A stretch of DNA of 64,000 nt from Escherichia coli (GCF_003018235.1 NZ_CP027439.1); one strand, 5' to 3'. Shown: positions 19,121 through 42,540, counted from the stretch's first letter. Translations and numbers: made by a program. The notes: generated by a model not told the origin, from the sequence alone.

Positions 19121-19450
19121 TTGCGGACGGATGATATATTGATAAAGGATACTCATGCGTGTAAAACGCAAAATACCCTGAGTAATCAGGGTATTAAACG
19201 CGGAAAAGTAAAGGTTGAGCGCTTTACATTTTCCATTCACACCAGAGGCGTGACTAAATCTAAAATTGATTCTACGGCAACGTTCAATCTACGTCAAATC
19301 GCCAATGGTTTTCCTGTTATGAAAATTACCGGAGGCTTCATGTTGTTAACCATCATCGACACCTATCTTCATGCTTCATTACTGACACAGATACTGGTAA
19401 TCCCGTTTATCTGTGCGGTGGTGTGGGCGGTAAAGAAAATCCGGGTATAA
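19121..19450 (+). CDS. Small protein with C-terminal transmembrane tail (family A paralog)
   Basis: ATFNLRQIANGFPVMKITGGFMLLTIIDTYLHASLLTQILVIPFICAVVWAV parallels the C-terminus of 18130..18441. Confidence 0.5.
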   Translation: MRTDDILIKDTHACKTQNTLSNQGIKRGKVKVERFTFSIHTRGVTKSKIDSTATFNLRQIANGFPVMKITGGFMLLTIIDTYLHASLLTQILVIPFICAVVWAVKKIRV

Positions 19451-19504
19451 CTTAAACATGGCTGGCTGAGAGGCCAGCCATGTTCAGTGAGTTTTGTTTC
19501 GAAT

Positions 19505-19529
19505 GGACAGAATAACCTGAATGTCCAAG
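19505..19529 (+). repeat. Conserved inter-cassette site, copy 3
   Basis: GGACAGAATAACCTGAATGTCCAAG. Confidence 0.7.
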
Positions 19530-19645
19530 TTTGCAAGGAATTGTGATCGTACTACAACCAGTGTCAACCTTCCTATAATGCAGATAATCTTCTATAATTT
19601 CTTTTAATTCTGTGGCGATGTCATTAAGGAAAAGAGGTATTATTT

Positions 19646-19903
19646 ATGGGAAATAAACACATCAGCGCCAGTGAAGCTAAAAAGATTAGTTCTTCAGTGA
19701 TACCTGATGCAGACAAAACACTTGATATGATATTTGGAGGAATAAAGCTCCAAGCAAGATTGGGCCAGACATCCTTTATTTATCCTGTCCATGAAAACAT
19801 TCTTGAGCAAGTGGTCAAGGTTCTAAGGGAATCTGGTTATAGGATTAACTCATCGAAGGCTAATGAGAATAACAAATTTATTATTGAAATTAGCTGGCAG
19901 TGA
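19646..19903 (+). CDS. Hypothetical small soluble protein
   Basis: 85-aa ORF with GAGG-like RBS (aaaagaggtattatttATG). Confidence 0.5.
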   Translation: MGNKHISASEAKKISSSVIPDADKTLDMIFGGIKLQARLGQTSFIYPVHENILEQVVKVLRESGYRINSSKANENNKFIIEISWQ

Positions 19904-27974: not shown

Positions 27975-28220
27975 AGTCTACTGTATGCGACATTTTGATT
28001 TAGTTTTTTCCACTGGCTAGATCCAATAAATATATCCATATAGACCCTTAGAGATCCTAGAAGATCCCCGATCGCTGCAGGCCGCTCCGTTACTGGTCTC
28101 ATAGATGATTAATGTCTACTGTGTGCTACATAATGTCTATTGTATGCGACATAATATCTATTGAGTGCTACAAAAGGTCTACTATGTGCTACCATAAGGT
28201 CTACTGTGAGCTACTAAGAT
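27975..28220. repeat. RepFIB-type upstream iteron cluster
   Basis: Repeated ~21-bp units TCTACTGTGTGCTACATAA / TCTATTGTATGCGACATAA / TCTATTGAGTGCTACAAAA / TCTACTATGTGCTACCATAA / TCTACTGTGAGCTACTAAG plus nearby GATC sites. Confidence 0.8.
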
Positions 28221-29139: not shown

Positions 29140-29245
29140 GCTACTGTATGCTACATATTGTCCCATTATCTTGAGCGATAACTCCCAAAGTATTCATCTC
29201 GCTGTTATGAGACATTTGTTAATAGCATACAGTAGACATTTCAGT
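29140..29245. repeat. Downstream iterons of the replicon
   Basis: GCTACTGTATGCTACATATTG and inverted ATAGCATACAGTAGACATTTC after repA. Confidence 0.6.
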
Positions 29246-29560
29246 TATGTGGCCTCAGCGTCGTGTGCGGGCTGTGCCGTGCCTCCAACTTAGCCGGGTT
29301 GGCGTTGATGCAAGGGTACGCTTCGCCGCTGCGGTCACCCGGTCCCTCCTTCCCGTCTGCCGTGATTTTCCGGTCGTTCACCCGCTCAGATTTCGCGGTA
29401 TCACCCTCCAACTCCCGTCAGCCGAGTGCGTCAGGCTGCGGCTTCCCTTGCGCCCCTGCATCCCCGCCTTATCGCCCGGCTTTTATGGAGGCACGGCACC
29501 GCCCGGTGTCGCGGAATATGTGAACAACGGAGGAAATCCCATGCAGTATGCGAAACTCCC

Positions 29561-30643: not shown

Positions 30644-30867
30644 TACAGGGGCAGGCGGTGGAGGCCGCCTGTCAGCCCGCGCGAAAACCCCTGGCAGGCT
30701 GACGCCTGCCGGAAGGGAAGCGGGCCACGCTGACGCGTCGCCCGTTACCCTTCCTGTTTGTGATGTGCCCGGAATGTTTTTTTCTGATGTTATTTTTCTG
30801 TGGTTACCGTGCTTGTTATTGTTCTTCTTCTTTTTCCTCTTCCTCTTCTTTCCGTTCCTCTCCTGTT

Positions 30868-31395
30868 TATGGCTTTTCCGGGCGTCCCCCTGACGGGGCG
30901 GGCTGTCGTGAACGGAGCCAGCGAAGCTGTCTCCGCCCTGGCGGGCTTCCATCCCTGACGCGAAACCCTGGCTTGCAGCGACCGTTCCGGTCGCGCCGCC
31001 TCTGTCGCGCCGTGGCCTGCGCTCCTGGCATCCCGGCAAAAGGCCGCCGGGATGTAAGGGGCAACGCCGTTTCGCGCACGCGCTCTCCGTCGTTGCGGCG
31101 GGCCCCTGCTCATTGCCTGCCGGGTGCCACACACCCGTATGAGTCCCTGTCGCCGGGGGCTGAGACAGCCACAACCTGCCGCACTGACTGTCCAGGGTAA
31201 ATGAACAGCCCACAAAATTTTTTACCCAAAAACCGGTAAAAAATTTTGCGTTCTGCCCAGGACAGGTGCGTCAGGCCGTGGCAGTGATGCCCCTTGCGGC
31301 GAAGGTTCTCAAACGGGTGAAGTTCATACCACAGGGAATACAGCAGCAGGTTCCCGCGAAACGTCAAAACCGCGGCTCCCGAAACTCAACGGGTG
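30868..31395 (+). repeat. Frpo/ssi-like leading-region repeat, copy 1
   Basis: ~500-bp GC-rich element shared with 34163..34700 and 39676..40128; contains hairpin AAAATTTTTTACC-N8-GGTAAAAAATTTT. Confidence 0.75.
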
Positions 31396-31907
31396 ATGTT
31401 CTTTAAAAATCAGGATTTATTTCAGCCTCCGGCAATACGCATTTATTTGTTCTGTCAGTCATCCGGCTGACAGGTAATGAGAACGCAGGAACAGAAGGAG
31501 GAAAACACCGGAAAGCGTCAGATGCAGATATGAAAAAAGCAGGTCAGGGACCTGCTTAATCCATGCCGCAGAGACTGCACGAACAGTTTTTGCGGCTCCA
31601 GTCAATCGTCATAAGAGGCTAAATTATGACAATAAGTATTGTTTCACCTTCCGCAGCGGCTGTAAAGCCCCGCCGTCATCCCCGTTTCAGACGCGAAGAC
31701 ATCCCCGCGCCGGAAATTGACCCCGTGCTGAAAGCCTTCGGGCGACACATAGCCCGGAGTTTTCACCGGGGGCGTGGTGCACACATCCCCGCCATGAAAA
31801 ACACGGCCTTCGGGCAGGTGCTCCGCACACTCGAACTGAAACGCGCTTTTAACTGATGAGGTGAGCCGCCCCGCGAGGGGCGGCAACAGACGGAAGGAGA
31901 ACATTTT

Positions 31908-33269
31908 ATGACATTAGCAGCAATCACCATGACCGCCCCGGAAGCCGCCAGCCCTGTGCAGATGTACCGCGCGACCTACTCACCGGATGACAACAAACTG
32001 CGCCTGTATGCCGCGTCACGTCTTGACCCGGAGACGTATAAGAAAGTCCATGATGCCGGTTTCCGCTGGGCACCAAAACAGGCGCTGTTTGTCGCGCCAG
32101 CTTGGACACCGGGCCGGGAAGATGTGCTCCTCTCACTTGCCGGAGAGATTGAGGATGAAGACAGCACACTCGCTGAACGTCAGGAAGCACGGGCGGAGCG
32201 GTTTACTGGATACAGCGGAAAGCGGGCCAGTGAATCCGCACAGGCACTTGATGAAGTGGAAAGACTGGCCGCGATGATCCCGCCCGGTCAGCCCATTCTT
32301 GTGGGGCATCACAGCGAACGCCGCGCCCGTCGTGATGCGCAGCGTATTGAAAACGGCATGAAACGTGCTGTGATGCTCTTTGAACGTGCAGAATACTGGG
32401 AAGAGCGGGCGCGCTCGGCACTGCTTCACGCGAAGTATAAAGAACGTCCGGACGTTCGCTGGCGTCGTATCAAAAAAATCGAAGCTGATTTGCGCAAGTC
32501 TGAAAAGACCATCGCGCAGTCGCAGAAATATCTGACGATGTGGCGGGCTGAATCGCTGGATCTGAATATGGCAAAACTCATCAGCAGTCATGACCATATC
32601 AGCGCCTGTTTCCCGCTGGATACGTATCCGCGCCCGGCAGAAAAAAGCCAGTATGAAGGAAGTCGCTCGTTATGGTCGGCCCTGGATGATGACATCATCA
32701 CCACGGAGCAGGCCCGTGAAATTGCGATCCGCTGTCATGAACGGCAGATTCAGCGTCAGCAACGCTGGGTTAACCACTATCAGAACCGCCTGATCTATGA
32801 GCGTGCCATGCTGGACGAAAGCGGCGGCGTGGTTACCCGGACACAGGATTTTGAGCCGGGCGGACAGGTTTTCAGCCGGGGTGAGTGGCTGACCATCATC
32901 CGCGTGAACAAAAGCAACGGGGCGGTGAGTTCAGTCACAACGCCAAATTACAGTTTTCTCGGGTACAGCGGCACGATGAAAGTGACGCCCGATCGCATCA
33001 CGGACTACAAAGCACCATCGGCAGAAGAGGCTGCCGTCGCCAGCCAGGCCGCGAAGCGTCCGCCGGTAGTCAACTATCCGGGGGAAGGTTTCCGGGAAAT
33101 GACAAAGGCACAGTGGGCCGCCCTGCCCCGGGACTGTAAGGCCGTGCGCAGTGTGGCAGAAGCAGAAGACCACGGGGCATACCGCTACCGCCGCACAATG
33201 GACAATAATTTCCGTCTGGTGAATGTGTATATCACCGACATGAAAATTACGGAAATCCCACAGAAATAA
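31908..33269 (+). CDS. Hypothetical leading-region protein
   Basis: 453-aa ORF with GGAAGGAG RBS, first gene after Frpo-like copy 1. Confidence 0.7.
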   Translation: MTLAAITMTAPEAASPVQMYRATYSPDDNKLRLYAASRLDPETYKKVHDAGFRWAPKQALFVAPAWTPGREDVLLSLAGEIEDEDSTLAERQEARAERFTGYSGKRASESAQALDEVERLAAMIPPGQPILVGHHSERRARRDAQRIENGMKRAVMLFERAEYWEERARSALLHAKYKERPDVRWRRIKKIEADLRKSEKTIAQSQKYLTMWRAESLDLNMAKLISSHDHISACFPLDTYPRPAEKSQYEGSRSLWSALDDDIITTEQAREIAIRCHERQIQRQQRWVNHYQNRLIYERAMLDESGGVVTRTQDFEPGGQVFSRGEWLTIIRVNKSNGAVSSVTTPNYSFLGYSGTMKVTPDRITDYKAPSAEEAAVASQAAKRPPVVNYPGEGFREMTKAQWAALPRDCKAVRSVAEAEDHGAYRYRRTMDNNFRLVNVYITDMKITEIPQK

Positions 33270-33315
33270 GGTATATCCCCCCGGGAAATCCCCGGGGGAT
33301 GACGGAGATAATGAC

Positions 33316-33879
33316 ATGCACAGTCAGTTAAAAGAACGTATCCGGCTGATGCGCGCAAGGCTGGATAACGCCGCGCCGGTTGCTGAAATCCGGGCTGAAT
33401 CTCAGCTTTTTGTGACTCCTGCCCCGGTCTGTGATCGCCTGGTGACGCTGGCGGAGATCAGCAACCGTGATCACATTCTGGAACCCTCTGCCGGCACCGG
33501 GGCCATACTGCGGGCGATTCGGGATACCGCGCCGGGGGCCATGTGTGATGCGGTGGAAATCAACAGCGGGCTGGTCCGGTATCTGCGGGAAAATTTTAAC
33601 GGTGTCAGGGTTCAGTGTGGCGACTTCATGGAATGGCAGCCGGTGCAGTATTACAGCCGGGTTATCATGAATCCGCCGTTCAGCCACGGGCAGGATATCC
33701 GGCATATCCTGCGGGCCTTTTCCCTGTTGCGTCCGGGTGGCGTGCTGGTTGCCGTCTGTCTGAACGGGCCGCGCCAGCAGGAGAAGCTGTTACCGTTTTC
33801 TGACGTCCGCGAGGAGCTGCCACGCGGCACGTTTGCTTATACCGATGTTCCGACGATGATTATTCGTCTGCGTGCCTGA
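33316..33879 (+). CDS. Orphan SAM-dependent DNA methyltransferase (N6-adenine type)
   Basis: SAM-binding EPSAGTGAIL and catalytic NPPF motif; no adjacent restriction enzyme. Confidence 0.75.
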   Translation: MHSQLKERIRLMRARLDNAAPVAEIRAESQLFVTPAPVCDRLVTLAEISNRDHILEPSAGTGAILRAIRDTAPGAMCDAVEINSGLVRYLRENFNGVRVQCGDFMEWQPVQYYSRVIMNPPFSHGQDIRHILRAFSLLRPGGVLVAVCLNGPRQQEKLLPFSDVREELPRGTFAYTDVPTMIIRLRA

Positions 33880-34060
33880 TGACTCCGGGCAGGCGGGAGG
33901 ACAAATGCCCGTCTGCCCGCGCCGGGAAAAGACCGCGCGCCGGTGGCGCTGAAAGGGGCCGCGCTCACGCGCCGCCCCTTACATTACGCGGACATTCTGC
34001 TGTGGGCTTCTGTCTTTTCAGACCTGTCATTTGTCTGTTACTGATGATGTTGTTGTTCCT

Positions 34061-34108
34061 GCTACTGCTACTGCTACTGCTACTGCTACTGCTACTGCTA
34101 CTGCTACT
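34061..34108. repeat. Hexanucleotide tandem repeat (GCTACT)x8
   Basis: Eight perfect tandem copies read directly, followed by a CT-rich tract. Confidence 0.9.
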
Positions 34109-34162
34109 GTTCTTCTTTTTTCTGCTGTTCTGATTACTGCCTGTTTTGTTGTTCTCCTGCTT

Positions 34163-34700
34163 ATGCCTTTTCCGGGCGTCCCCCTGGCGGGGCGGGCTGT
34201 CGTGAACGGAGCCAGCGAAGCTGTCTCCGCCCTGGCGGGCTTCCATCCCTGACGCGAAACCCCGGGCTTGCAGCGACCGTTCCGGTCGCGCCGCCTCTGT
34301 CGCGCCGTGGCCTGCGCTCCCGGCATCCCGGCAAAAGGCCGCCGGGATGTAAGGGGCAACGCCGTTTCGCAAACCGCGCTTCACGTCGTTGCGGCGGGTC
34401 CCTGTCCGTTGTTGTGTCCGGTGCCATTCACCTGTTTAAGCCCCTGTCGCCGGGGGCTGATACAGCCACAACCGTCTCCGCCAGTCCAGGGGTGAAATGT
34501 ACATCCCGCAAAACTTTTTGCCCAAAAGCAGGCAAAAACTTTTGCGGTCTGCCCCCGGACAGTCGTTTCCGGCCGTGGCAGTGATGCCCCTTGCGGCGAA
34601 GGTTCTCAAAAAGGTGATGGTGAATACCGGAGGGAACAAAAGGCAGGTCCCCGCAAAACGTCAAAACCGCGGCTCCCGAAACTCAAAAGATGATGGGGGC
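34163..34700 (+). repeat. Frpo/ssi-like leading-region repeat, copy 2
   Basis: Near-identical blocks to copy 1 (GCGTCCCCCTG...GGCAACGCCGTTTCGC) and copy 3. Confidence 0.75.
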
Positions 34701-34728
34701 TGAAAACATCAACAGAAGGAGGCACATC

Positions 34729-35558
<830 letters not shown>

Positions 35559-35621
35559 GAGAGGTGCCGGACGGGAACGCGTCCGGCAGACATACAACCA
35601 TCCCGGTCAAAGGAGAAATAT

Positions 35622-37580
35622 ATGTCAGTTACAGAGTCTAAGACAAAAACGGAGCGTAAATCCAGCCGTAAACCTGCAAAAACGCAGGAAACAGTCCTGT
35701 CTGCCCTGCTGGCGCAGACGGAGGAAGTGAGCGTGCCGCTGGCCTCACTGATTAAATCACCGCTGAATGTGCGCACGGTGCCGTATTCTGCGGAGTCCGT
35801 CAGCGAACTGGCGGACTCCATTAAAGGCGTCGGCCTGTTACAGAATCTGGTTGTTCATGCCCTGCCAGGTGACCGTTACGGTGTCGCCGCAGGTGGTCGC
35901 CGACTGGCTGCACTCAACATGCTGGCAGAGCGTGGCATCATTCCGGCTGACTGGCCTGTCCGTGTGAAGGTCATTCCGCAGGAGCTGGCGACGGCGGCAT
36001 CAATGACTGAAAACGGTCATCGTCGGGATATGCACCCTGCTGAACAGATTGCCGGATTCCGCGCAATGGCGCAGGAAGGCAAAACACCTGCACAAATCGG
36101 TGATTTGCTGGGCTATTCACCCCGCCATGTCCAGCGAATGCTGAAACTGGCAGATCTTGCGCCTGTCATCCTCGATGCGCTGGCAGAAGACCGCATCACC
36201 ACCGAACACTGTCAGGCGCTGGCACTGGAGAACGACACCGCGCGTCAGGTGCAGGTGTTTGAAGCCGCCTGCCAGTCAGGATGGGGTGGAAAACCGGAAG
36301 TGCAGACCATTCGTCGTCTGGTGACCGAAAGTGAAGTGGCGGTGGCGGGGAACAGTAAATTCCGCTTCGTGGGGGCTGATGCCTTCTCGCCAGATGAACT
36401 GCGCACCGATTTGTTCAGCGACGACGAGGGTGGCTATGTGGACTGTGTTGCGCTCGATGTCGCCCTGCTGGAAAAACTCCAGGCTGTCGCAGAGTTCCTT
36501 CGGGAAGCCGAAGGCTGGGAATGGTGCGCCGGACGTATGGAGCCTGTTGGTGAGTGCCGTGAGGATGCCGGAACATACCGCTGTCTGCCGGAGCCGGAAG
36601 CGGTGCTGACGGAGGCGGAAGAAGAACGCCTGAACGAACTGATGGCACGTTACGACGCGCCGGAAAACCAGAGTGAGGAATCCGACCTGCTGGAAGCCGA
36701 AATGAAGCTGATGCGCTGCATGGCGAAGGTCAGGGCGTGGACGCCGGAGATGCGTGCCGGAAGTGGCGTGGTGGTGTCCTGGCGTTATGGCAACGTGTGT
36801 GTCCAGCGTGGTGTGCAGTTGCGCAGTGAGGATGATGTGGCTGATAACGATTACCGCACGGAACAGGTGCAGGAGAAAGCCTCAGTGGAGGAAATCAGTC
36901 TGCCGCTGCTGACGAAAATGTCCTCAGAGCGCACGCTGGCAGTCCAGGCGGCACTGATGCAGCAATCAGACAAATCCCTGGCACTTCTGGCATGGACACT
37001 CTGTCTGAATGTATTTGGCAGTGGAGCGTACAGCAATCCCGCCAGAATCCGCCTGGAATGTGAGCATTATTCGCTGACCAGCGATGCGCCGTCAGGGAAG
37101 GAAGGTGCCGCATTCATGGCGATGATGGCAGAAAAAGCCCGTCTTGCCGCCCTGCTGCCGGATGGATGGGCACGGGATATGACGACGTTCCTGTCACTCA
37201 GTCAGGAGGTGCTGTTATCACTGCTCAGTTTCTGCACCGCGTGCAGTATCCACGGTGTCCAGACCCGTGAGTATGGTCACACGTCACGCAGTCCGCTGGA
37301 TTCGCTGGAAAGCGCCATCGGCTTTCACATGCGCGACTGGTGGCAGCCGACAAAAGCAAACTTCTTCGGACACCTGAAAAAGCCGCAGATTATCGCAGCC
37401 CTGAATGAGGCAGGACTGTCCGGTGCTGCACGGGACGCGGAGAAGATGAAGAAAGGCGATGCGGCTGAACATGCAGAGTTCCACATGAAAGACAACCGCT
37501 GGGTGCCTGGCTGGATGTGTGCACCACGCCCACAGACGGATGCCACTGAACGCACCGATAACCTGGCTGATGCCGCCTGA
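35622..37580 (+). CDS. ParB-like nuclease domain protein (F-type leading region)
   Basis: 652 aa; N-terminal ParB/Srx motif (SLIKSPLNVRTVPYS...GLLQNLVV...GGRRLAALNML). Confidence 0.8.
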   Translation: MSVTESKTKTERKSSRKPAKTQETVLSALLAQTEEVSVPLASLIKSPLNVRTVPYSAESVSELADSIKGVGLLQNLVVHALPGDRYGVAAGGRRLAALNMLAERGIIPADWPVRVKVIPQELATAASMTENGHRRDMHPAEQIAGFRAMAQEGKTPAQIGDLLGYSPRHVQRMLKLADLAPVILDALAEDRITTEHCQALALENDTARQVQVFEAACQSGWGGKPEVQTIRRLVTESEVAVAGNSKFRFVGADAFSPDELRTDLFSDDEGGYVDCVALDVALLEKLQAVAEFLREAEGWEWCAGRMEPVGECREDAGTYRCLPEPEAVLTEAEEERLNELMARYDAPENQSEESDLLEAEMKLMRCMAKVRAWTPEMRAGSGVVVSWRYGNVCVQRGVQLRSEDDVADNDYRTEQVQEKASVEEISLPLLTKMSSERTLAVQAALMQQSDKSLALLAWTLCLNVFGSGAYSNPARIRLECEHYSLTSDAPSGKEGAAFMAMMAEKARLAALLPDGWARDMTTFLSLSQEVLLSLLSFCTACSIHGVQTREYGHTSRSPLDSLESAIGFHMRDWWQPTKANFFGHLKKPQIIAALNEAGLSGAARDAEKMKKGDAAEHAEFHMKDNRWVPGWMCAPRPQTDATERTDNLADAA

Positions 37581-37634
37581 TGAACAACCACACCGCCCCG
37601 CCGGAGACGGGGCGGCAGCAAGGGAGATACCGTG

Positions 37635-38069
37635 ATGAAAACTGAACTGACCCTGAATGTATTACAGACCATGAACGCACAGGAATATGAAGATATCCGG
37701 GCTGCCGGAAGTGATGAACGCCGTGAGCTGACTCACGCCGTGATGCGGGAGCTGGATGCGCCGGATAACTGGACGATGAACGGCGAGTACGGCAGCGAGT
37801 TTGGCGGCTTTTTCCCCGTCCAGGTCCGTTTCACGCCTGCCCACGAACGTTTTCACCTGGCGTTATGTTCACCGGGCGATGTCTCTCAGGTCTGGGTGCT
37901 GGTTCTGGTGAATGCCGGTGGTGAGCCGTTTGCGGTGGTTCAGGTACAGCGGCGGTTTGCACCGGAAGCCGTCAGCCATTCACTGGCACTGGCGGCGTCA
38001 CTGGATACGCAGGGGTACAGCGTTAACGACATCATCCATATCCTGATGGCGGAAGGAGGTCAGGTATGA
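37635..38069 (+). CDS. psiB: Plasmid SOS inhibition protein B
   Basis: [40 protein letters not shown]... matches F PsiB. Confidence 0.95.
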
Positions 38070-38785
38070 GCGTACGTTCACAGGCACTGGTTCCCCTCAG
38101 CACAGAGCAACAGGCCGCATGGCGGGCGGTGGCGGAGACAGAAAAACGCCGCCATCAGGGTAACACGCTGGCGGAATATCCGTATGCGGGGGCGTTTTTC
38201 CGCTGTCTGAACGGAAGCCGCAGGATATCGCTGTCTGACCTGCGATTTTTCATGCCGTCCCTGACCGCAGAAGAACTGCACGGCAACCGTCTTCAGTGGC
38301 TGTATGCAGTCGATGTGCTGATTGAAACACAGGGCGAGGTCTGCCTCCTTCCCCTTCCCGGTGATGCAGCAGAGCGGTTGTTTCCGTCGGTGCGGTTTCG
38401 TGTCAGGGAGCGCAGTCGCCATAAATCCGCGCTGGTCATGCAGAAGTACAGCCGCCAGCAGGCACGGGAGGCAGAGCAGAAAGCCCGTGCGTACCAGGCG
38501 CTGGTCGCTCAGGCTGAAATCGAACTGGCATTCCATTCGCCGGAAACAGTCGGAAGCTGGCATGCACGCTGGAGTGACCGGGTGGCAGAGCATGACCTGG
38601 AAACCCTGTTCTGGCAGTGGGGCGAGCGTTTTCCGTCACTGGCCGGAATGGAACGCTGGCAGTGGCAGGATATGCCGTTCTGGCAGGTTATTGCGGAAGC
38701 CAGTCTTGCAGCAAGAGAGGCCGGTCACGCTGTCCGTGAGATGGAGCGGTGGATGGTGCCGAACAAACTCCGGGAGGCTGCGTGA
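38066..38785 (+). CDS. psiA: Plasmid SOS inhibition protein A
   Basis: 239 aa immediately after psiB with ATGA overlap; matches F PsiA. Confidence 0.9.
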
Positions 38786-39006
38786 TGCGGCAACAATCAC
38801 ACAGATTACCCGTAAACAGCCTGAATGAGCGGGTTATTTTCAGGAAAAGTGAGTGTGGTCAGCGTGCAGGGATATGGGCTATGATGTGCCCGGCGCTTGA
38901 GGCTTTCTGCCTCATGACGTGAAGGTGGTTTGTTGCCGTGTTGTGTGGCAGAAAGAAGATAGCCCCGTAGTAAGTTAATTTTCATTAACCACCACGAGGC
39001 ATCCCT

Positions 39007-39219
39007 ATGTCTAGTCCACATCAGGATAGCCTCTTACCGCGCTTTGCGCAAGGAGAAGAAGGCCATGAAACTACCACGAAGTTCCCTTGTCTGGTGTGTG
39101 TTGATCGTGTGTCTCACACTGTTGATATTCACTTATCTGACACGAAAATCGCTGTGCGAGATTCGTTACAGAGACGGACACAGGGAGGTGGCGGCTTTCA
39201 TGGCTTACGAATCCGGTAA
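39007..39219 (+). CDS. mok: Mok, overlapping leader reading frame of the hok/flm locus
   Basis: 70-aa frame overlapping hok in another frame, as in hok/sok-type loci. Confidence 0.6.
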
Positions 39220-39223
39220 GTAG
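39065..39223 (+). CDS. hok: Hok/FlmA-family type I toxin
   Basis: Manual translation [52 protein letters not shown] (52 aa); Sok antisense RNA expected on the opposite strand just upstream. Confidence 0.9.
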
Positions 39224-39675
39224 CAACCTGGAGGCGGGCGCAGGCCCGCCTTTTCAGGACTGATGCTGGTCTGACTACTGAAGCGCCTTTATAAAGGGGC
39301 TGCTGGTTCGCTGGTAGCCCCTTTCTCCTTGCTGATGTTGTACGGGCATGAACAACCTGACTTCAGGAAGATCGTTTCCCTTCAGGAACGGGGATGAACG
39401 CGCGCCTGCGGCGCCCGTTCTTTTCCCCCGCCTTCTCTGGTTATGGCCTGTCAGAAATCACATCACCTTCCCTGTGATTATTCTCTTTTTCTTCCTGCTC
39501 TGATTCTGACTACTGCAGTGTTGTCCTGTCTGCTAGGCGCACCTTCGGCTCCCGGCTGCCTGGCGGCATCCGGTCGTCAGGCCCGACTCCGACAGGCAGC
39601 TGCTGGCGCACCTGCCAGTCTCCGCCGAACCCGCTGGCGCGGTTTCGGGCTGTCGCTACGGTCCGATGCGTGAAA

Positions 39676-40128
39676 ACCACAGGCTTGCAGCGACCGTTCC
39701 GGTCGCGCCGCCTCTGTCGCGCCGTAGCCTGCGCTCCCGGCATCCCGGCAAAAGGCCGCCGGGATGTAAGGGGCAACGCCGTTTCGCAAACCGCGCTTCA
39801 CGTCGTTGCGGCGGGTCCCTGCCCGTTGTTGTGTCCGGTGCCATTCACCTGTTTAAGCCCCTGTCGCCGGGGGCTGATACAGCCACAACCTGCCGCACTG
39901 ACTGTCCAGGGTAAATGAACAGCCCACAAAATTTTTTACCCAAAACCCGGTAAAAAATTTTGCGTTCTGCCCAGGACAGGTGCGTCAGGCCGTGGCAGTG
40001 ATGCCCCTTGCGGCGAAGGTTCTCAAACAGGTGATGGTTAATACCGGAGGGAACAAAAGGCAGGTCCCCGCAAAACGTCAAAACCGCGGCTCCCGAAACT
40101 CAACAGATGATGGGGGCTGAAAACCAGA
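39676..40128 (+). repeat. Frpo/ssi-like leading-region repeat, copy 3
   Basis: Shares the 3' block with copy 1 and the central block with copy 2. Confidence 0.75.
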
Positions 40129-40137
40129 GAAAGCAGG

Positions 40138-40425
40138 ATGAGTACCCGAAATATCCACGTTAACACCGCGTCGTACACGCTTCTTGTTGCCGGGAAGAAA
40201 AAAAACACCGGGGAAGAGTGGGACGTCCTGGAATTCAGCAGCCTGACTGAGCTGAAAAAATATCGCAAAAGCCACCCGGAAAAGATGGCCTTCAGCTATA
40301 GCTACGCGCTCAGCCAGGGTGTGGATACGCAGTTCCGCCATATCAACATTGCGGAAGCTGATCACTTCAAACAGTTCCTGCGTCAGATTAAGCGTGCCGG
40401 CCTCGATATCCGGGCGATCTGCTGA
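40138..40425 (+). CDS. Hypothetical leading-region protein
   Basis: 95-aa ORF immediately after Frpo-like copy 3. Confidence 0.6.
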   Translation: MSTRNIHVNTASYTLLVAGKKKNTGEEWDVLEFSSLTELKKYRKSHPEKMAFSYSYALSQGVDTQFRHINIAEADHFKQFLRQIKRAGLDIRAIC

Positions 40426-40542
40426 CCGGATGTGATGAATATCCCTCCTGATTGTTGCAATGTTGTTAATGGAGAACGGGGGGATGATATTAAGCGGAAA
40501 AATTTTTTATTAAATTTATTCTTTCATAAAGGAGTAGCTGTT

Positions 40543-41364
40543 ATGCGATTAGCTTCCCGTTTTGGTCGGTATAATTCCATCCGCCGTGAACGTCCTTTAA
40601 CGGATGATGAATTAATGCAGTTCGTGCCTTCGGTATTTTCCGGTGATAAACATGAGTCCCGGAGTGAACGTTATACGTATATTCCAACAATCAATATCAT
40701 CAATAAGTTACGTGATGAAGGTTTCCAGCCATTCTTTGCCTGTCAGAGTCGGGTTCGTGATTTGGGGCGTCGGGAATACAGTAAATATATGTTACGTCTT
40801 CGTAGGGAAGGGCATATTAACGGGCAGGAAGTTCCTGAAATTATCCTGCTTAATTCACATGATGGTTCATCCAGTTATCAGATGATCCCGGGAATTTTTC
40901 GTTTTGTCTGCACAAATGGCCTGGTGTGCGGAAATAATTTTGGCGAAATCCGCGTTCCACATAAAGGTGATATTGTCGGGCAGGTTATCGAGGGAGCGTA
41001 TGAAGTGCTCGGTGTCTTTGATAAGGTCACTGATAATATGGAGGCAATGAAAGAAATTCATCTTAACAGTGACGAGCAACATTTATTTGGCAGAGCTGCC
41101 CTGATGGTCAGGTATGAAGATGAAAATAAAACGCCGGTGACGCCTGAACAGATAATTACTCCCCGTCGTCGGGAGGATAAACAGAACGATCTCTGGACAA
41201 CCTGGCAGCGGGTTCAGGAGAATATGATAAAAGGTGGATTATCGGGGCGAAGTGCCTCCGGGAAAAATACCAGGACAAGAGCCATTACAGGTATTGATGG
41301 TGATATAAGAATCAACAAAGCATTATGGATGATTGCCGAACAGTTCAGGGAGTGGAAGTCATGA
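40543..41364 (+). CDS. DUF932-like plasmid protein
   Basis: 273 aa from MRLASRFGRYNS with AAAGGAG RBS; resembles DUF932 family. Confidence 0.6.
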   Translation: MRLASRFGRYNSIRRERPLTDDELMQFVPSVFSGDKHESRSERYTYIPTINIINKLRDEGFQPFFACQSRVRDLGRREYSKYMLRLRREGHINGQEVPEIILLNSHDGSSSYQMIPGIFRFVCTNGLVCGNNFGEIRVPHKGDIVGQVIEGAYEVLGVFDKVTDNMEAMKEIHLNSDEQHLFGRAALMVRYEDENKTPVTPEQIITPRRREDKQNDLWTTWQRVQENMIKGGLSGRSASGKNTRTRAITGIDGDIRINKALWMIAEQFREWKS

Positions 41365-42199: not shown

Positions 42200-42540
42200 A
42201 TAATTTAACCCACTCCACAAAAAGGCTCAACAGGTTGGTGGTTCTCACCACCAAAAGCACCACACCCCACGCAAAAACAAGTTTTTGCTGATTTTTCTTT
42301 ATAAATAGAGAGTTATGAAAAATTAGTTTCTCTTACTCTCTTTATGATATTTAAAAAAGCGGTGGTACTGACTATTTTTATAAAAAACATTATTTTATAT
42401 TAGGGGCGCTGCTAGCGGCGCGGTGTGTTTTTTTATAGGATAACGCCAGGGGCGCTGCTAGCGGTGCGTCCCTGTTTGCATTATGAATTTTAGTGTTTCG
42501 AAATTAACTTTATTTTATGTTCAAAAAAGGTAATCTCTAA
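42200..42540 (-). other. oriT: Origin of transfer (oriT), F-type
   Basis: Minus strand carries the F nic-region sequence (GGTGTGGTGCTTTTGGTGGTGAGAACCACC...); direct repeats GGGGCGCTGCTAGCGG upstream of traM. Confidence 0.8.

Follow-up and report, generated by a model that had tools for sequence, protein, structure and literature searches.

What do three long, GC-rich repeats do in front of the genes of a plasmid leading region, and how did they come to share segments in a mosaic pattern? These questions are raised by a 64,000-nt stretch of DNA from Escherichia coli (GCF_003018235.1, NZ_CP027439.1), which was analysed over its whole length and is called the window below. A first-pass annotation had likened the repeats to Frpo/ssi elements, i.e., to promoters that work on single-stranded DNA (ssDNA), and had proposed that they recombined with one another. 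We consider it highly probable (about 0.88) that the three repeats are class-1 ssDNA promoters (Frpo/ssi/ssp1) of the leading region of an IncF plasmid. Their membership in the Frpo/ssi class is supported, in line with that proposal, by homology to F ssiD/Frpo, by their position and orientation relative to the nic site, and by a conserved, covarying, and strand-specific hairpin.

The element class is already known and catalogued, and the exchange of segments from copy to copy is real but ordinary for it. Frpo/ssiD was reportedly characterised in 1997 by Masai and Arai, and the three ssi copies of ColIb-P9 are said to have been described in 1999 by Bates, and also by Nasim in 2004. In F, Frpo1 and Frpo2 are needed for early expression in vivo, and ssiD has been described as RNA-polymerase dependent (Couturier 2023). 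The catalogue of Samuel 2024 lists 13,089 homologues in 6,006 elements. Such promoters are present in 74% of PsiB-type plasmids. In 2025, transcription start sites were mapped for the class-1 elements ssi1-3 of pESBL together with a scheme of classes 1, 2, and 3 (Wen 2025, PMC12672017), and the genes under F Frpo1 and Frpo2 show transcript enrichment in recipients (PMC12672017). Priming was demonstrated in vivo in 2026 (bioRxiv 2026.01.09.698686). For F Frpo1 and Frpo2 and for ssi1-3, it is known that sigma70 RNA polymerase transcribes and primes on the single-stranded form only and that the genes downstream are induced zygotically. In the first minutes after the entry of a resistance plasmid, Frpo-type promoters determine when its establishment genes, among them those for anti-SOS and anti-restriction functions, are expressed, and they are a current focus of research. 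The window holds no new kind of element; it offers a quantitative picture of how the copies evolve, with exchange of matched modules, concerted change at two of the three positions, gain and loss of early operons by crossover, and a folding advantage of the transferred strand. Module shuffling, strand-specific stability, and the origin of F Frpo2 are modest refinements, useful to specialists rather than surprising.

Three Frpo/ssiD homologues in an IncF leading region

A three-way MAFFT alignment placed the repeat copies at 30868-31413 (copy 1), 34163-34710 (copy 2), and 39674-40127 (copy 3), each about 450-550 bp long and with a GC content of 0.59-0.62 versus 0.50 for the whole window. The repeat search of the window returned a three-copy family at 30962-31413, 34257-34710, and 39674-40127, and a two-copy family at 30814-30971 and 34108-34265. 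Three GC-rich repeats of ~450-540 bp had been announced at these sites, and both approaches bear them out. When the core of copy 2 was used as a BLAST query, exactly three copies were found and no fourth was detected in the 64 kb.

The strand on which the repeats would act was defined from the origin of transfer. The sequence GCGTGGGGTGTGGTGCTTT, which we take to be the F nic/TraI site, has an exact match on the minus strand at 42254-42272, with 0 matches expected by chance. The minus strand is thus the transferred (T) strand; it enters towards lower coordinates and serves as the template of every plus-strand leading gene. The region has matches at 80-99% identity in more than 5000 plasmid records, most of which belong to conjugative IncF plasmids from E. 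coli, Klebsiella, Salmonella, and Shigella. The window is an IncF leading region.

For the comparison with F, the reference ssiD/Frpo sequence was taken from supplement 4 of Samuel 2024 and F was represented by F-Tn10 (L002; plasmids of the comparison set are given by their L numbers where they have to be told apart). The F ssiD/Frpo query matches the same three loci of the window. Copy 2 is 96.6% identical to F Frpo1/ssiD over 589 nt. For copy 3, the identity is 95.3% to F Frpo2 and 96.6% to the Frpo1 position, with which it is colinear, while copy 1 is 86.6-93.6% identical to the F copies and colinear with the left part of F Frpo2. Only two copies are present in F, and the 3.3-kb segment bearing the operon of copy 1, which encodes a DUF3560 protein and a methyltransferase, is missing there. 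Position and sequence do not coincide between the two plasmids. F Frpo1 (ssiD, ssp1a) occupies the position of copy 3, upstream of ygeA/ygeB, yet its sequence is nearest to copy 2, with which it shares block A, tip allele Y (both described below), and the same long T-strand hairpin; unlike it, the ygeA-proximal copy of the window has tip X and block A'. Compared with F, the alleles of positions 2 and 3 have changed places. F Frpo2 (ssp1b) occupies the position of copy 2, upstream of ssb, and has the same right arm and ssb junction.

The three ssi elements of the IncI1 plasmids ColIb-P9/pESBL (ssi1-3) resemble the window copies in being dispersed in the leading region, in having an A/T-rich tip with TTGTGG-N16-17-TGGACN, and in carrying further small hairpins 3' of the main hairpin on the T strand. 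Unlike the window copies, they have a different outer-stem sequence and a shorter main hairpin.

The transferred strand folds into a conserved hairpin

When the minus strand of each copy is folded as DNA, an imperfect hairpin of ~330 nt arises around an A/T-rich tip. This long hairpin, which is the Frpo-like element proper, lies at 31059-31389 in copy 1, 34354-34686 in copy 2, and 39771-40103 in copy 3, i.e., 10.9-11.2, 7.6-7.9, and 2.2-2.5 kb from nic, respectively. The folding energies were -150.5 kcal/mol for copy 1 (folded over 30860-31420; z -7.7 versus dinucleotide shuffles), -153.1 kcal/mol for copy 2 (z -8.5), and -171.4 kcal/mol for copy 3 (z -11.5).

To look at the conservation of this structure, 27 copies were gathered, the sources being the window and nine further plasmids; Salmonella supplied a tenth locus, which was a partial match only. 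The 27-sequence alignment comprises 24 distinct IncF hairpins, one Serratia homologue, and two insect-metagenome homologues; ColIb ssi1-3 were excluded from it because their outer stems are too divergent for reliable alignment by MAFFT. RNAalifold gave a consensus of 87 pairs, 11 of them with compensatory changes on both sides. Standard pairs occupy 98.5% of the pair cells, versus 42-50% when the partners are slid by 1-3 columns, and the covariation score is 0.141 versus at most 0.050; the observed values were reached by no shuffle. As MAFFT misaligned a short segment in which tips X and Y differ (columns ~205-230 of alignment A2), the pair counts there are conservative.

The hairpin is also strand-specific. 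In 27/27 sequences the T strand is more stable than its complement, by 6.6-18 kcal/mol (mean 11), because about 10 pairs are G-T wobbles on the transferred strand. The hairpin-forming inverted repeats that had been predicted for the three copies are thus present in all of them, and the Frpo-like architecture, far from being lost on folding, is retained, covarying, and strand-specific across the 27 homologues.

The copies are mosaics of exchangeable segments

On the plus strand, each unit is ordered as follows: a GC-rich hairpin after the upstream stop codon, an A-poor simple-sequence tract of 60-130 nt, a 5' block of 100-140 nt that occurs in two unrelated forms (A or A'), an almost invariant block B of ~90 nt with short hairpins, and the long hairpin. 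Among the GC-rich hairpins at the unit starts, only the one at 39402-39414 satisfies the criteria of the terminator scan. In copy 1, block A (30868-30969) is common to copy 2 and holds the short palindrome CCGCCCTGGCGGG, and block B (30970-31058), almost the same in all three copies, contains the short hairpins GCGACCG..CGGTCGC and CATCCCGGC..GCCGGGATG. Its long hairpin has tip X and mid-stem m1. In copy 2, the alignment places block A at 34163-34262 and block B at 34263-34353 (34163-34353 together), followed by a long hairpin with tip Y, the allele of F ssiD/Frpo1, and mid-stem m2. In copy 3, the alternative block A' (39535-39673), which differs in sequence from block A of copies 1 and 2 and is found at position 1 or 2 in other plasmids, is followed by block B (39674-39770) and by a long hairpin with tip X and mid-stem m2. 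All of these segments are given as elements of the minus strand. The long hairpins of copies 2 and 3 directly abut the ribosome-binding site and start codon of the next gene, the copies ending 20-30 nt before them, whereas copy 1 is followed by a 237-nt spacer. Two small variants were seen in or near block B. The loop of the hairpin GCGACCG-TTC-CGGTCGC (window 34272-34288) is inverted to GAA, with the stem unchanged, in copies L001_2, L005_1, L005_3, and L008_1, and copy L007_2 has a 14-nt tandem duplication immediately after the short hairpin of block B.

Among the window copies, 95 informative sites fall into 15 runs, and as few runs were seen in 0 of 20,000 permutations (p<5e-5). In the left arm, 20 of the 21 informative sites group copies 2 and 3; in the hairpin tip, 32 consecutive informative sites group copies 1 and 3; and in the right arm the informative sites again group copies 2 and 3. 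The mosaic pattern reported earlier therefore stays under careful alignment, with two corrections. The block common to copies 1 and 3, which had been placed at the 3' end, is the central hairpin tip, and the inference of recombination from the switch pattern stands, although that pattern had missed a third switch, back to the grouping of copies 2 and 3 in the outer right arm. The divergent tip segment consists of both arms of the inner stem, and the left- and right-arm variants of the mid-stem likewise pair together. A copy in which the left and right variants match thus retains its base-pairing.

Other plasmids carry the same segments in other combinations. Position 1 has tip X in 9/9 plasmids. 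At positions 2 and 3, respectively, the window has the tips (Y,X), L001 and F have (X,Y), L005 and L008 have (Y,Y), and L006 and L007 have (X,X). Across plasmids, each of blocks A and A' is found at every position. These four tip combinations, together with the block pattern and identities of up to 100% between copies of one plasmid, confirm that the copies recombine with one another. Within 4/7 plasmids, positions 2 and 3 are 96-100% identical, while the same position compared between plasmids is on average 90-92% identical. Judged from these comparisons, positions 2 and 3 undergo concerted evolution. In the best 5000 BLAST records for the ssb and ygeA positions, ~47% have at least 95% identity and ~52% have 90-95%; these bands, in which tip alleles are mixed with other divergence, are a rough proxy for allele frequency, and they suggest that both tip alleles are common at positions 2 and 3. 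For experimenters this means that 'Frpo1' and 'Frpo2' are not fixed sequences, as the tip alleles before ssb and ygeA are swapped or duplicated in many plasmids. Four class-1 copies are found in L005 (NZ_CP148509.1, 14146-16113), in which an extra module, comprising a short ssb-like open reading frame (ORF) and two small ORFs, lies between hok and ygeA. Copies 2 and 4 of this plasmid are identical over the compared region, which indicates a recent duplication or conversion.

F Frpo2 as a product of recombination between two copies

F Frpo2 (F-Tn10, 19404-19734) was compared with copies 1 and 2 of pO157 (L004), a plasmid that encodes the proteins flanking the element in F. To the left of an invariant 40-nt block, F Frpo2 agrees with position 1 of pO157 at 57/60 differing sites; to the right of this block, it agrees with position 2 at all sites. 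The switch of parent at the 40-nt block and the missing 3.3 kb are together what a single crossover between copies 1 and 2 would leave. As far as sequence can tell, F Frpo2 is a recombinant of positions 1 and 2 in which the DUF3560-methyltransferase module was lost. It differs from copy 2 of the window in being a chimera: the left flank, tract, mid-left arm, and tip belong to the position-1 type, the right arm to the position-2 type. The window keeps both parental copies, while F does not have the DUF3560-methyltransferase operon. The mid-stem of F Frpo2 is mismatched because the crossover fell inside the hairpin, and among all copies it has the weakest fold (-85.7 kcal/mol). The element nevertheless works in vivo, and a risk of recombination between Frpo1 and Frpo2 has been pointed out (Couturier et al. 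2023). A comparable case is that of the Frpo repeats R1-R3 of pO26-CRL125 and the hybrid repeat of pO111-CRL115. The hybrid is identical to parts of two parental repeats and, as in F Frpo2, marks where the DNA between the parents was lost or gained; that case concerns a 9.7-kb segment of an IncI-type leading region, whereas here a 3.3-kb module of an IncF region is involved (Venturini 2013, PMC3817090).

Candidate promoter elements and a working model

Three arrangements of -35/-10 boxes compete for the role of promoter in the hairpin. Candidate 1, TTG(T/C)GG-N15-17-TGGAC(A/T/G), is present in 25/27 homologues and in 3/3 of ColIb-P9 ssi1-3. It lies in the 3' arm of the T strand, beside the A/T-rich tip and facing the genes, and has a poor -10. 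On the minus strand of the window, it corresponds to 31189-31215 in copy 1 (TTGTGG at 31215-31210, N15, TGGACA at 31194-31189, beside the A/T-rich tip), to 34483-34511 in copy 2 (TTGCGG at 34511-34506, N17, TGGACT at 34488-34483), and to 39903-39929 in copy 3 (TTGTGG at 39929-39924, N15, TGGACA at 39908-39903). Candidate 2, TTGAGA-N17-CATCAC, is in the 40-nt block, which is invariant in all 24 distinct IncF copies aligned; its CATC is within an internal loop, the opposite side of which is freely variable. Candidate 3, TTGACG, is at the base of the stem and is also invariant. Candidate 1 is the only promoter-like arrangement common to the window copies and ColIb-P9 ssi1-3, it agrees with the description of UP, -35, and -10 elements in Samuel et al. 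2024, and it matches the geometry of a class-2 (ssp2)-like hairpin of the window, in which the boxes TTGCAT and TAAGTT are on the same arm. Of the three, we regard the tip-proximal TTGYGG-N15-17-TGGACN as the likeliest candidate for the promoter boxes.

A working model can be drawn by analogy with F and ColIb-P9, from the literature on which ssDNA transcription and priming by the copies are taken. The minus strand would enter the recipient 5'-first from nic at ~42.26 kb, so that copy 3 arrives first, then copy 2, and then copy 1. Each copy, while single-stranded, would fold into its ~330-nt imperfect hairpin and mimic duplex promoter DNA. Host sigma70 RNA polymerase, aided by SSB, would start at the hairpin and transcribe the plus-sense genes rightward: ygeA/DUF932 from copy 3, ssb-psiB-psiA from copy 2, and a 76-aa ORF, DUF3560, and methyltransferase from copy 1. 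The same transcripts may prime synthesis of the complementary strand, and conversion to duplex would abolish the hairpin and turn the promoter off. As for the mosaic, direct repeats would recombine or undergo gene conversion while the plasmid is double-stranded, the exchanged units being the tip, the mid-stem, and the 5' block. Exchange of the tip segment would keep the arms matched, whereas a crossover within the hairpin, as proposed for F Frpo2, would mismatch them and weaken the fold. Crossovers between copies would delete or add entire operons, F Frpo2 being one such product.

A bolder idea is that the hairpin is a set of nested modules (tip X/Y, mid-stem m1/m2, 5' block A/A'), each kept in two forms among IncF plasmids and reassorted between the three promoter positions by gene conversion, and that this shuffling is a system of regulatory variation and not neutral homogenisation. 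We put this forward tentatively and think it rather unlikely. Tips X and Y differ exactly in the candidate promoter segment and so might alter early expression; if the idea were true, the tip forms (TTGTGG-N15-TGGACA vs TTGCGG-N17-TGGACT) could set the strength or timing of early expression for each operon. As a corollary, F Frpo2, the experimental standard, would be a deletion chimera with a partly mismatched stem.

Simple-sequence tracts in front of the copies

Simple-sequence tracts had been described in front of copies 1 and 2. Both are present, and copy 3 too is preceded by a shorter pyrimidine-rich tract (39476-39534, 73% pyrimidine). Tract 1 (30810-30867) is 90% pyrimidine on the plus strand with a triplet (TTC/CTC) periodicity; Tandem Repeats Finder (TRF) reported its TTC-periodic part at 30822-30861, and the corresponding tracts of pO157 and F are different in length by 9 and 18 nt. 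In front of copy 2, TRF found a perfect (CTGCTA)x8.5 microsatellite at 34059-34109 (score 102, 100% matches), in agreement with the eight hexamers noted before, followed by a T/C-rich tract at 34110-34162. The slippage that had been suspected is supported by a comparison of nine plasmids, in which 2 to 13 hexamers are found: the window has 8 and the eight others have 9, 8, 5, 2, 13 (6 CTGCTA and 7 CTGCTC), 4, 2, and 7. Among 60 sampled records, most differences in matched length are multiples of 6. The hexamer repeat is ~250 nt outside the long hairpin. We treat the upstream tracts as slippage-prone, A-poor, unstructured spacers of variable length. More speculatively, being T-poor and non-self-pairing on the transferred strand, they might keep neighbouring hairpins folding independently.

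Alternative explanations

Several points weigh against a role of the repeats as ssDNA promoters. The promoter scan of the repeats found no linear sigma70 consensus match inside any copy, and the three candidates for the -35/-10 boxes rival one another, with a good -10 hexamer in none. Most of the compensatory changes are inherited as blocks and thus represent few independent events. The mismatched mid-stem of the functional F Frpo2 indicates that the outer stem is not strictly required. Finally, copy 1 is 237 nt from its first gene with the gene of the antisense RNA AS-pc01 between them, unlike the start-codon-abutting copies 2 and 3. Could the repeats then be priming signals only (ssi, via RNA polymerase or a primosome), which do not drive downstream expression? 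The history of ssiD, first isolated as a single-strand initiation signal whose transcripts prime DNA synthesis in vitro and in vivo, would fit such a role, as would the fact that a strong -10 hexamer is not visible in the copies. We find this very improbable, given the short distance from copies 2 and 3 to the ribosome-binding site and start codon, the result of the promoter scan, which found no consensus duplex sigma70 promoter upstream of the three operons, and the documentation of priming and expression as dual outputs of one element. A mainly structural function, as terminators or insulators between operons or as replication roadblocks like ssp2, with the promoter role being secondary, seems to us to have an equally slim chance. 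In its favour are the high stability of the hairpins, the further small hairpins that blocks A and B contribute upstream of the Frpo core, and the action of ssp2 of F as a replication roadblock; yet in the study of ssp2 early rifampicin-sensitive conversion starts at ssp1a/ssp1b, and the roadblock is at ssp2 and not at the class-1 elements (bioRxiv 2026.01.09.698686). Moreover, the conservation of the 40-nt block and of the motifs at the tip extends to the sequence itself, which is invariant beyond what pairing demands, and this suggests sequence-specific recognition.

That the repeats or the tracts before them encode proteins is improbable, although small ORFs are annotated in several records. 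One of them is an 84-aa ORF (33879-34133, plus strand), whose ATG overlaps the stop codon of the methyltransferase gene and in which the hexamer repeat is read as poly-leucine. It is intact in 7/9 plasmids, with 72-94 aa and indels in frame, and is annotated in some records. The in-frame indels are automatic, since the repeat units are 3 and 6 nt and a 6-nt unit cannot shift the frame. The ORF is broken in two of the nine plasmids, by a frameshift in one and by loss of the stop codon in the other; the N-terminal substitutions among the nine plasmids mostly alter the amino acid and purifying selection is not evident. Pfam gave no match for the ORFs in the tracts. Stop codons are rare by chance in GC-rich or pyrimidine-rich DNA, and pairing covariation accounts for the conservation of the repeats. 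The 84-aa ORF is probably not a real gene. A second ORF, a 68-aa 'hypothetical protein' of RefSeq (34497-34703, plus strand), is inside the right arm of the hairpin; homologous ORFs are found in L001, L004, L005, and L008, and one E. marmotae record labels it an SSB. Its frame is open in tip-Y copies alone and ends at a TAA in tip-X copies, which makes a spurious call most likely. As to the mosaic, uneven divergence of three old duplicates, with no recombination, would be compatible with the fact that some block boundaries coincide with invariant segments, so that such a boundary need not mark a crossover. It is extremely improbable, since positions and plasmids show every combination of blocks that each comprise more than 30 linked differences, two copies of L005 are identical over the compared region, F Frpo2 switches parent once and cleanly, and the permutation test on the runs left p<5e-5. 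The class-1 ssDNA promoter, shuffled by recombination, remains our preferred reading.

Genes and other features of the leading region

Along the window, the gene order is antirestriction gene, DUF1380, 63-aa ORF, copy 1, 76-aa ORF, DUF3560, and SAM (S-adenosylmethionine) methyltransferase, then copy 2, ssb, DUF905, ParB-like gene, psiB, psiA, and hok/sok, and finally copy 3, 95-aa ORF, DUF932, SLT transglycosylase, and traM. The plus-strand operon after copy 1 (31626-33879) encodes the 76-aa ORF, the DUF3560 protein (31908-33269), and the class I SAM methyltransferase (33316-33879). The one after copy 2 (34730-38785, plus strand) encodes ssb, the DUF905 and ParB-like proteins, psiB, and psiA, the ssb start at 34730 being read from the sequence after AAGGAGG. 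The genes after copy 3 (40138-41364, plus strand) are the 95-aa ygeA-like ORF and a ygeB-like gene for the DUF932 protein, the names ygeA and ygeB being after Couturier 2023.

In the search of Rfam, no family was found for the repeats themselves, the matches being AS-pc01, sok, and two sub-threshold ones only. The antisense RNA AS-pc01 (31534-31631, minus strand; 109.6 bits, E 1.3e-19) occupies the 237-nt spacer after copy 1 and overlaps the beginning of the first gene there, the 76-aa ORF. It has its own sigma70-like promoter (31666->31638) and a terminator (31557->31537), and the operon of copy 1 may thus be under the control of both an ssDNA promoter and an antisense RNA. The sok antitoxin RNA of the hok/sok module (38891-39067, plus strand; 88.9 bits in Rfam) lies between copies 2 and 3. 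The placement of hok/sok has been suggested to guard against deletion via recombination between repeats (Couturier et al. 2023).

Elements of class 2 (ssp2, 'Frpo3') and class 3 (ssp3) are likewise T-strand hairpin promoters of the leading region and are not similar in sequence to the three repeats. Class 2 has clear TTGCAT and TAAGTT boxes, which the class-1 copies do not have. In the window, a class-2-like hairpin is found on the minus strand at ~29200-29450, upstream of the antirestriction (ArdB/KlcA-like) gene, with a fold z of -5.0. Its T strand carries TTGCAT...TAAGTT with the -10 within a mismatch loop, and it resembles the candidate Frpo'4 (Samuel 2024). Further upstream, at 28110-28214, the 21-nt unit TAATGTCTACTGTGTGCTACA forms five tandem repeats (78% matches) in front of a 295-aa ORF.

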